A DNA stretch of 64,000 nt from Escherichia coli. GTDB lineage: Bacteria; Pseudomonadota; Gammaproteobacteria; Enterobacterales; Enterobacteriaceae. Of this stretch, positions 4,713-60,618 are shown one piece after another; the first letter of the stretch is position 1, and every line of letters starts with the position of its first letter. The position numbers were made by a program, and so were the translations under genes. The DNA lies in NCBI RefSeq assembly GCF_030384885.1, contig NZ_CP128613.1; one strand, 5' to 3'. The notes below the pieces were generated by a model. The model did not search any database and was not told the DNA's origin. It saw nothing but the letters and a program-made list of their open reading frames with translations.

Positions 4713-5174
4713 GTCTGTATTTCCTTATCCAAAGTATGGAGAAGTTAACATTATGCTTCACAACTTCATAGTGTCTGGAGGTAGTATTTTTATGACGAAT
4801 GAAATACTTTGCGCAAATATTTTTTCCATATTTATCAGCGAAACGTTTCTCTTATTTAAATAAGTAACCATACAAAGTATAGGTTTTTAATTATCAACCT
4901 TTATTATAAGTAAAAGTTATGAAATATATTCTCTTTGCTAACTTATAATTAAGAGAAAAAAACTCACTGCATGGCCATTTAAACCAGGAATAAATTAGCT
5001 TCCCGTTCATCATTTTTGTGATCTTGCGCACATCTTTGAGATAACGCACTTTCTTCACCAGTACGTTGCACACTTTGTCAGTAGAAGATTGCAACATTCT
5101 GTCAGAAGGCCGCGAATCCCCCGTTTTGTCGTGGTAATGTATGCACTTTGTGTTAGACGGGATAGGTTTTCAAG

Positions 5175-9807: not shown

Positions 9808-10965
9808 TTGAAACGTAGTCTGCTTTTTTCTGCCGTGCTTTGTGCGGCGTTATTGACCCCCGTCCATGCGGCGCAGCCGATCACTGAACCGGAGTTCGCC
9901 TCTGATATTGTCGATCGTTATGCCGATCATATTTTTTATGGCAGTGGTGCCACGGGGATGGCGCTGGTTGTTATCGACGGTAACCAGCGCGTCTTTCGCA
10001 GTTATGGCGAAACGCGCCCGGGTAATAACGTTCGCCCGCAGCTGGATTCGGTCGTGCGTATTGCTTCGCTCACCAAGCTAATGACCAGTGAGTTGCTGGT
10101 GAAATTGCTCGACCAGGGGACCGTGAAGTTAAACGATCCGCTAAGTAAATATGCTCCACCAGGCGCACGCGTGCCGACTTACAATGGCACGCCTATTACC
10201 CTGGTGAATCTGGCAACCCATACCAGTGCCCTGCCCCGTGAACAGCCGGGAGGTGCGGCACATCGCCCAGTGTTTGTCTGGCCAACGCGCGAGCAACGCT
10301 GGAAATACCTTTCTACGGCGAAGCTGAAAGCCGCGCCAGGCAGTCAGGCGGCATACTCTAACCTTGCGTTCGACCTGCTGGCAGATGCACTGGCGAATGC
10401 TTCTGGCAAGCCTTATACCCAGTTGTTTGAAGAGCAGATTACCCGTCCGTTGGGGATGAAAGACACGACCTATACTCCATCGCCGGACCAGTGCCGCCGT
10501 TTAATGGTTGCAGAGCGCGGTGCCAGTCCATGCAATAACACGCTGGCGGCAATTGGCAGCGGCGGAGTCTATTCCACGCCTGGCGATATGATGCGCTGGA
10601 TGCAGCAGTATTTGTCATCTGATTTTTATCAGCGCAGTAACCAGGCAGATCGCATGCAGACGTTGATTTATCAGCGAGCGCAGTTTACAAAAGTGATTGG
10701 CATGGATGTCCCCGGCAAAGCGGATGCGCTTGGTTTAGGCTGGGTATATATGGCCCCGAAAGAGGGTCGTCCAGGGATTATTCAGAAGACAGGTGGTGGT
10801 GGCGGTTTCATTACCTATATGGCGATGATCCCGCAGAAGAATATTGGCGCATTTGTGGTGGTCACTCGTTCGCCATTGACGCGCTTTAAAAATATGAGCG
10901 ATGGCATCAATGACCTGGTGACCGAACTGAGCGGGAATAAACCGTTGGTCATCCCCGCGTCCTGA
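9808..10965 (+). CDS. ampH: Penicillin-binding protein AmpH (class C beta-lactamase fold)
   Basis: 385 aa; signal peptide; SxxK motif (ASLTK); the codon at 9808 is TTG. Confidence 0.9.
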   Translation: MKRSLLFSAVLCAALLTPVHAAQPITEPEFASDIVDRYADHIFYGSGATGMALVVIDGNQRVFRSYGETRPGNNVRPQLDSVVRIASLTKLMTSELLVKLLDQGTVKLNDPLSKYAPPGARVPTYNGTPITLVNLATHTSALPREQPGGAAHRPVFVWPTREQRWKYLSTAKLKAAPGSQAAYSNLAFDLLADALANASGKPYTQLFEEQITRPLGMKDTTYTPSPDQCRRLMVAERGASPCNNTLAAIGSGGVYSTPGDMMRWMQQYLSSDFYQRSNQADRMQTLIYQRAQFTKVIGMDVPGKADALGLGWVYMAPKEGRPGIIQKTGGGGGFITYMAMIPQKNIGAFVVVTRSPLTRFKNMSDGINDLVTELSGNKPLVIPAS

Positions 10966-11652
<687 letters not shown>

Positions 11653-11653
11653 T

Positions 11654-14623
<2,970 letters not shown>

Positions 14624-15148
14624 TTGTCATCCCTCCTCAGGGACGTAATAAGTTGATCCATCAATTATCAATGCATAGAAAACATCTTATGTTTCGCGTT
14701 GACGATTATGCGGCGTTATAGAGGAATGGTTCAATTATTCTTTCCCCGAAGTCCGGTTACGGACATATATAAAGCACGGAGAAACACACAAAGAAAAAAT
14801 TGATGAAATCCTAATTTTTCAACAAGTTAACAGGAGTTCCATTTTTAAAGCATATGCATTTAAAATATCAAACACACAAACCAGACAAATAATCTATCAA
14901 TAACCAATGAACTTTAAATCATTCTGTTTTTGATAACGCAATCAAATCCGTAAAAACAATAATCTATAGCTATAAATAAAAATTAAAAATATTTTCAATG
15001 AATATAAATTTATTGCTATTTCTATTACAAAGATGTCCTGACCTCTCATTCATTCTCTTCTTGTCAACATCGCGACAACTTTCGTAAAACATCCCCACCC
15101 TGCTTCAGGTATACTATGCCCCTCGATTCCACAAACATCAGGCAGACC

Positions 15149-16123
15149 ATGACAGATTTAATCCAACGCCCTCGTCGCCTGCGCAAATCTCCTGCGCTGC
15201 GCGCTATGTTTGAAGAGACAACACTTAGCCTTAACGACCTGGTGTTGCCGATCTTTGTTGAAGAAGAAATTGACGACTACAAAGCCGTTGAAGCCATGCC
15301 AGGCGTGATGCGCATTCCAGAGAAACATCTGGCACGCGAAATTGAACGCATCGCCAACGCCGGTATTCGTTCCGTGATGACTTTCGGCATCTCTCACCAT
15401 ACCGATGAAACCGGCAGCGATGCCTGGCGGGAAGATGGTCTGGTGGCGCGTATGTCGCGCATCTGCAAGCAGACCGTGCCAGAAATGATCGTTATGTCAG
15501 ACACCTGCTTCTGTGAATACACATCTCACGGTCACTGCGGTGTGCTGTGCGAGCATGGCGTGGACAACGACGCGACCCTGGAAAATTTAGGCAAGCAGGC
15601 CGTGGTTGCAGCTGCTGCAGGTGCAGACTTCATCGCCCCTTCCGCCGCAATGGATGGCCAGGTACAAGCGATTCGCCAGGCGCTGGACGCTGCGGGCTTT
15701 AAAGATACGGCGATCATGTCGTATTCGACCAAGTTCGCCTCTTCCTTTTATGGTCCGTTCCGTGAAGCTGCCGGAAGCGCATTAAAAGGCGACCGCAAAA
15801 GTTATCAGATGAACCCAATGAACCGTCGCGAGGCGATTCGTGAGTCACTGCTGGATGAAGCCCAGGGCGCAGACTGCCTGATGGTTAAACCAGCCGGAGC
15901 GTACCTCGACATCGTGCGTGAGCTGCGTGAGCGTACTGAATTGCCGATTGGTGCGTATCAGGTGAGCGGTGAGTACGCGATGATTAAGTTCGCCGCGCTG
16001 GCGGGTGCTATAGATGAAGAGAAAGTCGTGCTCGAAAGCTTAGGTTCAATTAAGCGTGCGGGTGCGGATCTGATTTTCAGCTACTTTGCGCTGGATCTGG
16101 CTGAGAAGAAGATTCTGCGTTAA
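15149..16123 (+). CDS. hemB: Porphobilinogen synthase (delta-aminolevulinic acid dehydratase)
   Basis: ORF 15116-16123; start [23 protein letters not shown] at 15149; 324 aa. Confidence 0.95.
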
Positions 16124-16162: not shown

Positions 16163-17014
16163 TTACCCCGCCCGATAAAACGGAATATCCCCAAGAATCG
16201 TCGCCCGATGCATAATCCGCCGCTGTGGCAGGTAATCCGCATTGGCATAGTGCTGAGTCACTCGGTTATCCCAAATCGCAATATCATTCGGTTGCCAGCG
16301 CCAGCGCACCTGAAACTCCGGTTTAGTGATATGGGCAAACAAAAAACCTAACAAGGCTTCGCTCTCTTTCTCGCTGACGTCAACAATTCGCGTAGTAAAG
16401 CCTTCGTTCACAAACAGCGCCTGTTTACCGGTCACCGGATGCGTTCGCACAACCGGATGGAGTAACGGTGGATTTTTCGCGACCGCCTCGTGCCAGCGTT
16501 GATGCTCCTCCTCGGTTTTGCGGTACTTGTATTCCGGGAACGATTTACGGAAATCATGCTCCGCACATAACCCGCTCAATAGTTGACGGAAGGGAACTGA
16601 GAGCGCCTCATAGGCCGCAATACCGCTGCTCCATAGCGTATCGCCGCCGGTCGAGGGTAACTCTTTCGCCGCCAGAATCGCCCCTGCGGGTGGCGTTTCA
16701 ATAAATGTCACATCGGTGTGCCAGTTATCGTTATCCGGCGGATTATCGTTATGAGTATCCAGTACGATAATCTCGTCAACCCCTTCGGCATGAGGGTAAA
16801 CAGGATGAATATGCAGTTCGCCAAAACGTTGGGCCAGCGCGCGTTGCTGCTGCGGCGTAATGGCCTGTTCACGCAGAAACACCACCTGATGACGCAGTAC
16901 CGCATGGTAAAGCTGTTCAAACTGGTTATCACTTAACGGGCGCGTCAGGTCGACACCCGTAATTTGTGCGCCAATATACGGCCCCAGCGGGGTAATGCTC
17001 AGACGTTCACTCAT
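16163..17014 (-). CDS. tauD: Taurine dioxygenase (alpha-ketoglutarate dependent)
   Basis: 283 aa; overlaps the tauC stop by 4 bp. Confidence 0.95.
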
Positions 17015-17838
17015 TGTACTTCTCCATGCCAGGGCGTCAGGCGGCGCTGTAACGCGCGCAGACCCAGTTCTAAAAGAAAGGCGATACTCGCAATCACCGC
17101 GATCCCCGCCAGCACCACGTCAGTCGCGAGAAATTCACCCGCTGACTGGACCATAAAACCCAAACCGCGCGTCGCGGCAATCAACTCCGCCGCCACCAGG
17201 GTAGACCAGCCCACACCCAGACCAATGCGTAATCCGGTGAGAATTTCCGGCAGCGCACCGGGCAAAATAACAAACCACAGTACCTGTGTGCGGCTGGCCC
17301 CCAGCGACTGAGCGGCACGAATGCGAACCTGCTGCGCGCTTTTCACCCCCGCCAGCGCCGACATCGCCACAGGTGCAAAAATCGCTAAATAGATCAGTAA
17401 GATCTTCGAGGTTTCACCAATACCAAACCAGATCACCATCAGCGGCAAATACGCCAGCGGCGGCACCGGGCGATACAATTCAATTATCGGATCCAGAATG
17501 CCGCGCACCGTCGGGCTTAGTCCCATGGCGATCCCAACCGGAATGCCGATCAACACCGCCGCAAGTAGCGCCAGCACAATGCGCGTCAGGCTGGCTGCCA
17601 GATGTTGCCACAGGGTGGCGTCCATAAATCCTTGAGGTCCGGCAATAGTGAGCAGTTTTGCCAGTACCTGTTGCGGCGGCGGCAGAAACAGCGGGCTAAT
17701 CAGTTGCAGGGCCGCCACCGCCCACCATACAGTGAGTAAAACCGCTAACGTGCCAATGCTTAAGGTCACCTGACGCGAGAGCGGCCAGCGCCATTTCAGC
17801 CGATGCGAATGCAGTTTTTCATTAATGAGCACACTCAT
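17011..17838 (-). CDS. tauC: Taurine ABC transporter permease
   Basis: 275 aa polytopic protein; overlaps the tauB stop. Confidence 0.95.
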
Positions 17839-18602
17839 GAGAACGCCTCCCGTTGCTCAAATACGCGGCTTAAAACATATTCGCGCATGGCGATGAATTG
17901 TGGATCGGACTTGATGCTGCGGCTCGGTTCCCCGGCAACAAAGCGGCGGGCGAAGTTGAGCGGCAGCCGTTCCAACACACGGCCAGGGCCGGGTGAAAGC
18001 AGTACCAGCTCAGTCGCCATAAACACCGCTTCTTCTATATCGTGGGTAATCAACAGCACCTGCTTGCCCGTCTCCTGCCAGAGTTTCAGCAGCAGGGTTT
18101 GCATCTGGTCGCGGGTGAAGGCGTCCAGCGCGCCAAACGCTTCGTCGAGTAATAACAGCTGGGGATTTGCCGCCAGCGCGCGGGCAATCCCTACCCGCTG
18201 ACGTTGACCGCCGGAAAGCTGCCAGATATAGCGTTTTTCTGCGCCTTCTAGCCCCACTTTTTTCAGCATCTGGTGCGCGATTTCCAGGCGCTGTACTTTC
18301 TCTACACCTGCCAGTTGCAGGCCGAATGCCACGTTGTCTACCACATTACGCCACGGCAACAGCCCTTCATTCTGAAAAACCACGCCCCGCTCTGCGCCCG
18401 ATCCCTCAATGCACTTACCCGCCAGTTGAATGCTGCCATGCTGATAAGGCACAAAACCGGCAATCAGATTCAGCAAGGTGGTTTTGCCGCAGCCAGACGG
18501 TCCCAGAACCACCAGAAGCTCGCCGCTTTCCAGCGTCAGGTTGATATCTTCCAACGCCGGTTTGCCGCCATAATCGGCGTAAAGATGAGAGATTTGCAGC
18601 AT
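17835..18602 (-). CDS. tauB: Taurine ABC transporter ATP-binding protein
   Basis: 255 aa; Walker [10 protein letters not shown]; signature LSGGQRQR. Confidence 0.95.
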
Positions 18603-18614
18603 CTGCGCCTCCTT

Positions 18615-19577
18615 TTATTGCACGAAGCGCGAGGTCACGTACTGGCTGTAATCATTCGCCACGGCAGGGACTTTGCCCTGATCTTTCAAAAACTGCGCGG
18701 TATCGATGATCGCTTTATTCACCGGTCCGGTCAGTTCTGCCGTTTGTTGCTGCGGCGTCAGATAGGTATTCCCCTTCACCAGCCCCGGAACGTCACCTTC
18801 CGGCACGCCGCTTAAACGCGCCAGCTTGCTGATGTTTTCCGGCTGTTTCAGCCACGCGTCTGGGTTAGCAATGTACGGTTGCTGAGCATCGATGGCGCTT
18901 TTAGCGAACGCTTTCACGACTTCAGGATGTTTCTCGGCAAAATCTTTGCGCACTACCCAGACGTCCAGTGTCGGCGCGCCCCACTGCCCGACCTGTTCAG
19001 AATCGGTCAGCACCTTGCCATCTTTTTCCAGGGCGTTAACCGCCGGTGCCCAGACATAAGCACCATCAATGTCTTCCCGCTGCCAGGCGGCGATAATCGC
19101 AGGCGGCTGCAGGTTCACAATCTCCACTTGCCCGGGTTTAATGCCCCAGTGTTTCAGCGCCGCCAGCAAGCTGTAATGCGTGGTGGAGATAAACGGTACG
19201 GCAATGCGTTTGCCAATGAGATCTTCGGGTTTGCTGATGGTTTTCTTCACCACCAGCGCTTCGGAGTTACCCAGTTTTGACGCCAGCAAGAAGACCTCAA
19301 TCGGCACCTGTTGGCTGGCTGCAACCGCTAATGGGCTGGAACCGAGGTTGCCGATTTGCACATCGCCAGAAGCCAGTGCCCGCACGATGCTGGCCCCGCT
19401 GTCAAACTTACGCCAGTCCACGGTCGCCCCGCTCTCTTTAGCAAAGGTGTTATCAGCCTGAGCCACTTTCGCCGGTTCAGCGGAGGTTTGATAGGCCACA
19501 GTGACGTTCACCGCCTGTGCCTGAAAAGCGATGAATGCCAGTGCGGCAAGAAGTGTGTTACGCGATGAAATTGCCAT
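18615..19577 (-). CDS. tauA: Taurine ABC transporter periplasmic binding protein
   Basis: 320 aa with signal peptide; first gene of tauABCD. Confidence 0.95.
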   Translation of the reverse strand: MAISSRNTLLAALAFIAFQAQAVNVTVAYQTSAEPAKVAQADNTFAKESGATVDWRKFDSGASIVRALASGDVQIGNLGSSPLAVAASQQVPIEVFLLASKLGNSEALVVKKTISKPEDLIGKRIAVPFISTTHYSLLAALKHWGIKPGQVEIVNLQPPAIIAAWQREDIDGAYVWAPAVNALEKDGKVLTDSEQVGQWGAPTLDVWVVRKDFAEKHPEVVKAFAKSAIDAQQPYIANPDAWLKQPENISKLARLSGVPEGDVPGLVKGNTYLTPQQQTAELTGPVNKAIIDTAQFLKDQGKVPAVANDYSQYVTSRFVQ

Positions 19578-60380: not shown

Positions 60381-60426
60381 AGCCCATCCTTTGTTATCAA
60401 CTTGTTATTTACGTTGATAAACTCAA

Positions 60427-60442
60427 AGCAAGGGGTGTGCCA
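60427..60442 (-). promoter_or_regulatory. Sigma-54 promoter (-24/-12) of prpBCDE
   Basis: Minus strand reads TGGCACACCCCTTGCT (TGGCAC-N5-TTGC), about 45 bp upstream of the prpB start. Confidence 0.6.
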
Positions 60443-60618
60443 CAATTACATGGATGAAATTAAATGTTTTATTTCAATTTGTTAGAGAAAAAGTCATGAA
60501 GTAATCTGCAAATATGCGTTTCAGTTAACGTTTCAGGCAATGTTTCACTGCGTTTCATTGCAACAATTATGAAACAAGACTAAACCCAATATTCGGTTTC
60601 TTAACTTTGCGGTGCGCT

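Follow-up and report, generated by a model that had tools for sequence, protein, structure and literature searches.

The 525-bp gap between ehaB and hemB, which runs exactly from the ehaB start (14623) to the annotated hemB ATG (15149) in the 64-kb stretch of Escherichia coli DNA analysed here (hereafter the window), is most likely regulatory DNA shared by the two divergent genes (gap positions 14624-15148) and falls into three parts: a nearly invariant left part with the putative ehaB promoter and leader (14624-14773), a hypervariable AT-rich centre (14774-14968), and a right part conserved within Escherichia that leads into hemB (14969-15148). Silencing of ehaB by H-NS through the AT-rich tract is the best-supported mechanism and the one that we consider likely, and we infer that H-NS occupies the gap of this strain.

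The window carries, in order, ampH (9808-10965, plus strand), iprA (yaiV; 10966-11589, minus strand), ehaB (upaC/yaiT; 11675-14623, minus strand), hemB (15149-16123, plus strand), and tauDCBA (16163-19577, minus strand), with ampH and tauDCBA placed according to the annotation of an identical strain. Positions 14400-15400 are 100% identical to E. coli 2013C-4282, whose RefSeq annotation reads “autotransporter adhesin EhaB.” The gene on the 14623 side encodes an intact type Va autotransporter adhesin of 982 amino acids that matches the Pfam Autotransporter beta-domain (PF03797, E = 1.3e-46) and TIGR01414, belongs to a protein cluster named EhaB, and shows the features of the EhaB/UpaC class: it has a signal peptide, ends in an autotransporter beta-barrel and is flanked by hemB and iprA. 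EhaB and UpaC are two names for one protein that occurs in two allelic forms (PMC8281228). The hemB gene encodes porphobilinogen synthase according to its annotation and a Pfam ALAD match (E = 1.7e-136). An earlier, sequence-only reading of this DNA had named the autotransporter gene yaiT, which is correct as to the locus, but the gene is here an intact ehaB and not the K-12 pseudogene; IS3B interrupts yaiT in MG1655, where no feature is annotated inside the gap.

The same reading had described a long AT-rich divergent region between yaiT and hemB, strongly AT-rich over about 500 bp upstream of yaiT and with hemB transcribed from its far end. Its coordinates proved exact, hemB does start on the plus strand at 15149, and the gap has a GC content of 0.337 vs. 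0.523 across the window. At all scales tested (100-525 bp) the GC minimum of the whole 64 kb falls within the gap, e.g., 14913-15012 (GC 0.17), 14837-15036 (GC 0.215), and 14782-15031 (GC 0.224). The AT-content profile that had been proposed as a check places this last core approximately 5.4 sd below the window mean for 250-bp stretches (0.523, sd 0.055), and the A/T tracts and TpA steps of the gap are also near the top of the window distribution. The AT content is thus well over average across at least 100-200 bp, as is characteristic of H-NS-silenced regions. Second to the gap in AT-richness is 4765-4964 (GC 0.245), where the annotation of the identical strain has a hypothetical protein.

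For comparison, the gap was aligned across 18 Escherichia genomes and 41 loci from other enterobacterial genera, the latter retrieved from species-representative genomes with the EhaB translocator domain as query. The divergent hemB/ehaB pair was found in about 20 enterobacterial genera (about 48 species), and out to Rahnella almost all loci of sufficient length have iprA 3' of the ehaB homolog and in the same orientation. In 50 sequences from about 20 genera the gap GC content was 0.31-0.44 and the lowest 100-bp GC content 0.12-0.27, and the gap length was 522-525 bp in 18 of 18 Escherichia sequences. Because the AT-rich gap and the gene order are common to about 20 genera, the AT-richness is ancestral and bears no mark of recent import; recent horizontal import was rejected as its source, given that hemB-ehaB-iprA and the AT-rich gap are shared by about 48 species. 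A recent paper on the positional orthology of SeaB agrees with an ancestral locus (PMC13248724). Among E. coli alleles hemB is 97-99.5% identical, and approximately 97.4% between the window and K-12. Two noncoding control segments (4765-4964 and 60394-60593) matched about 95% of complete E. coli genomes at just 90-95% identity. Taken with the hemB value for K-12, this suggests that the source strain belongs to an E. coli lineage that is somewhat divergent.

On the ehaB side, the left part is nearly invariant, with a mean pairwise difference of 0 over 14624-14683 and 14729-14743 among the 18 Escherichia sequences and at least 90% identity in about 99% of matching E. coli records. A consensus scan placed a putative sigma-70 promoter for ehaB on the minus strand at 14734..14705, consisting of TTGAAC (14734..14729), an 18-bp spacer and CATAAT (14710..14705). 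Both hexamers are at least 95% conserved (50 sequences, about 20 genera), while the spacer is fixed in length and variable in sequence. Conserved hexamers around a variable spacer are the classic signature of a genuine promoter, and it is because of this pattern that we read TTGAAC-18-CATAAT as the putative ehaB promoter. From the position of the -10 element, transcription would start near 14697-14699. The putative core promoter is located 80-110 bp upstream of the ATG in a block that is only about 60% AT, and this conserved, less AT-rich block together with its conserved palindrome had been overlooked by the sequence-only reading. Promoter-like matches are not in excess in the gap (2 found vs. 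2.5 expected from shuffles), and a surplus of such sites was therefore rejected as a gap feature.

The predicted ehaB 5' leader (14624..14699, minus strand, about 75 nt) is invariant over 14624-14683 in the 18 Escherichia sequences, and 14624-14668 is 86-96% identical to the 41 loci of other genera. Cross-genus footprints on this side include the ribosome-binding region CGTCCCTGAGGAGGGATGAC and ATTGATGGATCAAC. Within the leader a hairpin is predicted (CGUCCCU-GAGG-AGGGAUG, GAGGAGGG; 14628..14645, minus strand) that would cover half of the ribosome-binding site; it has a free energy of -10.9 kcal/mol at 37°C, is part of the minimum-energy fold and is predicted to be stable from 20 to 42°C. Its sequence is invariant across genera and hence offers no covariation as a test of the hairpin. 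The fold of the whole leader is not significant (z = -1.5), and with the hairpin predicted stable at 20-42°C an RNA thermometer in the leader was rejected. The leader and the adjoining signal-peptide coding DNA (14541-14683) are 94-100% identical, synonymous sites included, even to other Escherichia species, whose hemB is merely 93-96% identical, and this segment is flanked by two hypervariable ones. Such conservation suggests that either the nucleotide sequence itself is constrained or the segment serves as a recombination anchor.

Upstream of the ehaB -35 element lies a palindrome (GTCCGGTTACGGAC, GTCCG-N4-CGGAC; 14751..14764) that matches exactly in the window and is kept with the consensus GTCYG-N4-CRGAC in about 48 species. 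It is centered approximately 59 bp ahead of the predicted ehaB start, where activators typically bind. We regard it as a candidate operator of a dimeric regulator, possibly IprA, and as only a lead; the role of the leader hairpin is likewise putative. The iprA gene, directly 3' of ehaB, is itself AT-rich (GC about 0.36 over 11263-11562), and its H-NS signal far exceeds that of ehaB. Between the ehaB stop and the iprA start, at 11608-11635, there is a perfect 11-bp stem-loop (ATGCCCGTCAA-GGA-TTGACGGGCAT) with no T-run after it, and just upstream of it GAAGAAATAGGTAATTTAATC (11640-11660) resembles the CyuR site that has been predicted 75 bp upstream of yaiV/iprA (PMC11408624).

It is conceivable that a dedicated dimeric factor, with IprA as candidate, activates or counter-silences ehaB at this palindrome and that H-NS is mere background. 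The conservation of the palindrome in about 48 species speaks for this explanation, as does its occurrence as a single copy upstream of ehaB in those loci that have the exact GTCCG-N4-CGGAC form. So do the position of iprA, 3' of ehaB and on the same strand in nearly all sufficiently long loci, and the winged helix of its product: IprA matches the NCBIfam IprA equivalog and, with its C-terminal winged helix, Pfam HTH_46 (E = 5e-31), and against solved structures it gave a weak match to a winged helix of the FadR/GntR family (8pqm_A, E = 0.003), all other matches being spurious. Palindromes of the GT...AC type are typical operators of the GntR family. However, one exact palindrome match per 64 kb is by itself not above chance, the half-sites change between genera without symmetry, and the family assignment of IprA is weak. 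We therefore hold control by such a regulator to be rather unlikely, and H-NS silencing of ehaB is preferred.

On the hemB side, the right part (14969-15148) is at least 90% identical in about 99% of E. coli records. It begins with the most AT-rich block of the gap (14969..15060, GC about 0.17-0.20), which is conserved in Escherichia (mean pairwise difference 0.02-0.10) but not in other genera (identity just 0.2-0.4); the consensus scan gave a promoter-like match on the minus strand at 15030..15001 (TTGTAA-18-TATATT). Just upstream of the hemB core promoter, at 15061-15078, is an inverted repeat (TTGTC-N8-GACAA, TTGTCAACATCGCGACAA) whose arms are invariant and whose spacer is variable in Escherichia and which is not conserved in other genera. 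The predicted hemB core promoter (15076..15122, plus strand) comprises the block CAACTTTCGTAAAACA (15076-15091), the -10 element TATACT (15110-15115) and a predicted start at about 15122. Across genera only three elements of the right part persist, i.e., the block CAACTTTCGTAAAACA, the -10 element and the leader; in every genus the -10 element follows TAnnnT (TATACT, TACAAT, TAAACT, TAGACT), and conservation of the upstream block is 80% or more.

One natural E. coli isolate (strain 4848) carries an IS1-linked deletion that takes out ehaB and everything left of about 15097, leaving approximately 52 bp of the gap. At the junction, TTGGCA from the IS1 end comes to lie 18 bp before the hemB TATACT, apparently creating a hybrid promoter for an essential gene. 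The placement of TTGGCA at this distance supports TATACT as the hemB -10 element, and since strain 4848 lost the AT-rich tract and kept hemB, the tract is dispensable for hemB. Both promoter assignments draw on cross-genus footprints, and that of hemB additionally on the IS1 deletion strain. That the hemB promoter uses merely the last 75 bp or so of the gap had been missed in the sequence-only reading.

The two conserved parts enclose a centre of 195 bp (14774..14968) that is about 71% AT and conserved in length. Of 5397 matching E. coli records, 5027 (93%) share only 60-80% identity with it, and its mean pairwise difference among the 18 Escherichia sequences is 0.14-0.37; by comparison, the left and right parts reach at least 90% identity in about 99% of records, and two AT-rich noncoding controls 90-95%. 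At least four allele classes of the centre exist in E. coli, with 59-75% mutual identity, and three further classes in other Escherichia; all classes taken together are 59-83% identical to each other. All alleles are 68-73% AT and differ in length by only scattered indels of 1-4 bp. The centre is thus one of the most divergent noncoding stretches at a core E. coli locus, yet its length and composition are kept. Conserved genes flank a far more divergent segment, as in switched or hyperdivergent intergenic regions. The relationships among centre alleles are decoupled from those among the passenger alleles of ehaB: the passenger of strain SCPM-O-B-8794 is 92% identical to that of the window, its centre 58.7%.

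A more elaborate scheme may be built on these alleles, although we give it little credence. In it, the centre would act as a spacer whose length and composition are fixed and whose sequence is free, with at least four old classes that reassort independently of the passenger alleles by way of the leader/signal-peptide anchor. Selection would act on the geometry of the H-NS filament (length and AT content), switching between classes would tune the silencing of ehaB, and the palindrome would be the operator of IprA as a dedicated counter-silencer.

The scarcity of indels in so divergent a centre recalls coding sequence, and many E. coli adhesins are phase-variable; both points favor a hidden gene or switch in the gap, be it a small RNA or protein, an invertible promoter, or phase variation of the adhesin through Dam or repeats. 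The searches for these gave the opposite picture. A permissive scan of 14300-15500 with the Rfam 15 covariance models on both strands returned no match at E ≤ 1, and a structured RNA in the gap was rejected. No reading frame is open across the centre alleles, the 106-codon open frame of K-12 being absent from the others, and a hidden small open reading frame in the centre was likewise rejected. Inverted repeats flanking a promoter segment were not found, only short imperfect AT-rich ones (up to 18 nt, 72-91% complementary); no tandem or simple repeats were found in the gap; and instead of a GATC cluster there is one GATC site (14655) vs. 2.0 expected by chance. Given the lack of useful inverted repeats or tandem repeats and the single GATC, a phase-variation switch was rejected. 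With the empty Rfam scan, no shared open frame, no inversion or tandem repeats, one GATC and no MG1655 annotation in the gap, a hidden gene or switch is very improbable.

Published data bear on H-NS itself. UpaC is named among the H-NS-repressed autotransporters of uropathogenic E. coli CFT073 in a passage of PMC5012682 that cites Allsopp et al. (2012); according to this source, upaC of CFT073 is reported to be derepressed when hns is mutated. The CFT073 gene c0478 (upaC; 465477-468465) is, by its coordinates, the gene adjoining hemB in that genome. Its allele is 96.7% identical to the window in the left block, 94.4% in the right block, about 74-75% in the centre and about 42% in the passenger-coding DNA. 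Per-gene averages of H-NS ChIP-seq IP/Input were taken from Data set S1 of Hustmyer et al. (2022; PMC9765446), a table that scores genes, not intergenic DNA, in strains other than the present one. In CFT073 the value is 6.71 for c0478 (just under the cut-off and not flagged bound), 2.2 for hemB, 2.75 for ampH and 1.16 for tauD (none flagged bound), and 34.47 for iprA (flagged bound); in MG1655 it is 4.67 for yaiT (again just under the cut-off and not flagged bound), 1.48 for hemB (not flagged bound) and 27.51 for iprA (flagged bound) (PMC9765446). Typical genes have values of roughly 0.5-0.9, and the scale is further given by araC (7.72, flagged bound) and fixA (6.58, not flagged) in CFT073 and by yaiP (5.42, flagged bound) in MG1655 (PMC9765446). 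The RNA polymerase signal on c0478 is low (1.11; PMC9765446). A 3-kb gene at about 8-10 times background beside hemB at 2-3 times is what would be seen if signal from a peak in the gap, and from iprA, spilled into the neighboring DNA, the gap itself being absent from the table. In the comparison with K-12 H-NS ChIP data proposed in the sequence-only reading, yaiT is raised, but its 4.67 stays just under the bound cut-off. The texts of Grainger (2006) and Kahramanoglou (2011) contain no mention of hemB or yaiT, and the literature on c0478, on yaiT with H-NS and on hemB with H-NS yielded nothing useful; a mention of yaiT in connection with ExcludonFinder was set aside because it concerns yaiT-ytiB and not the ehaB-hemB gap.

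The gap was also searched for the high-affinity H-NS motif TCGATAAATT, which is said to stem from Lang et al. in 2007. It contains 4 matches with at most 2 mismatches and 19 with at most 3, which is 4.5-5.4 times the window density. Shuffles matched for composition reached 4 matches (at most 2 mismatches) in 20 of 500 cases and 19 matches (at most 3 mismatches; mean 9.5 ± 3.1) in 1 of 500, and the gap is thus enriched in the motif. Profiling of DNA curvature, another check that had been proposed, spoke against a special bend: in an approximate wedge model the curvature of the gap is unremarkable, at best in the 5th-6th percentile of the window with a mild bend near 15000, and strong intrinsic curvature was rejected as a gap feature. 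The claim that the upstream DNA of ehaB is of the H-NS-silenced type is partly supported: it gains from the cited repression of UpaC, the raised ChIP values and the motif excess, but the genes stay under the bound cut-offs and the curvature is ordinary. It is further limited by the CFT073 allele, which differs from that of the window by about 25% in the centre and about 58% in the passenger domain, by the lack of an excess of promoter-like matches, by the position of the putative ehaB core promoter in a block of only about 60% AT, and by the conserved palindrome, which suggests that a specific regulator could be the main control.

Alternatively, the tract could be a passive spacer, formed by AT mutational bias in weakly constrained DNA that separates two promoters, with no meaningful role for H-NS. 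The hypervariability of the centre implies that its sequence is barely constrained, curvature is ordinary in the approximate wedge model, c0478 and yaiT have per-gene ChIP values under the bound cut-offs, and strain 4848 retains hemB without the whole tract. However, the gap length (522-525 bp) and the AT content of the centre (0.68-0.73) are constant among alleles with 25-40% divergent sites, about 20 genera have retained the extreme AT-richness, and a GC content of 22% is far under that of the other noncoding low-GC stretches of the window, one excepted. Furthermore, H-NS repression of the upaC allele is stated in a passage of PMC5012682, and H-NS ChIP on the gene is about 8-10 times the typical values (PMC9765446). 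We consider a merely passive spacer unlikely, and silencing by H-NS remains the preferred explanation.

The closest known system is the CFT073 upaC (c0478) region, which has the same hemB-[525 bp]-autotransporter-iprA locus and shares the putative promoter, the palindrome and the leader; it differs in that its centre is 74% and its passenger DNA about 42% identical to the window, and the reported H-NS repression belongs to the CFT073 allele. Silencing by H-NS is thus already known from the literature for that allele, and it probably holds for the window's allele. The genes upaH, upaG/ehaG and sslE and the F9 fimbriae resemble ehaB in their AT-rich upstream DNA and their silence in the laboratory, and they are listed together as H-NS targets in a passage of PMC5012682. 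Several of them are located on lineage-specific islands, whereas the ehaB gap is ancestral to about 20 genera and, unlike their promoters, consists of DNA shared with a housekeeping promoter.

Switched intergenic regions, or horizontal regulatory switching, have reportedly been described by Oren et al. in 2014 and with Piggy by Thorpe et al. in 2018. The ehaB-hemB gap has in common with them the conserved flanks (hemB 97-99.5%) and a much more divergent intergenic segment in discrete allele classes. It differs in that the central 195 bp alone is affected, the alleles align end to end with length and AT content kept, and the core promoters on both sides of the centre are unswitched. The Dam/OxyR-controlled agn43 (flu) and the invertible promoters of the fimS/UpaE type likewise control E. 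coli adhesins of the autotransporter or fimbrial kind; in contrast to agn43 the ehaB gap has one GATC and no cluster, and in contrast to the fimS/UpaE type it is without flanking inverted repeats or tandem repeats. At bgl and proU, H-NS control uses paired upstream and downstream AT-rich elements. Similarly, ehaB is bracketed by two AT-rich patches, the 5' gap and the strongly H-NS-bound iprA, but these are 3 kb apart, and bridging between them would be purely conjectural.

Taken as a mechanism, hemB would need just the last 75 bp or so of the gap and would probably be expressed constitutively from its GC-richer edge. The ehaB gene would be transcribed from the putative TTGAAC-18-CATAAT promoter, with the palindrome upstream and the invariant leader following, the ribosome-binding site of which is predicted to be half-buried in the hairpin. 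The approximately 290 bp of 71-83% AT DNA in between (14774-15060) would most likely serve as a platform for the binding and spreading of H-NS (with StpA). An H-NS filament on this tract may block RNA polymerase from the ehaB promoter or trap it there, so that the adhesin stays silent under laboratory conditions, and iprA would constitute a second strongly H-NS-bound AT-rich patch at the 3' end of ehaB.

Alone, this finding adds little, as the basic answer, H-NS silencing via AT-rich upstream DNA, has already been published for the CFT073 allele. New from the analysis is a base-level map of the gap that marks a putative promoter for ehaB and one for hemB, the conserved candidate operator, and the invariant leader. 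In addition, the centre alleles lend themselves to a natural experiment on which of the two, base composition or sequence, H-NS silencing relies on. The EhaB/UpaC adhesin is widespread in E. coli, acts as a biofilm factor and has been put forward as a vaccine antigen; it is silent in the laboratory, and knowing what keeps the adhesin off helps to judge when the host sees it produced.
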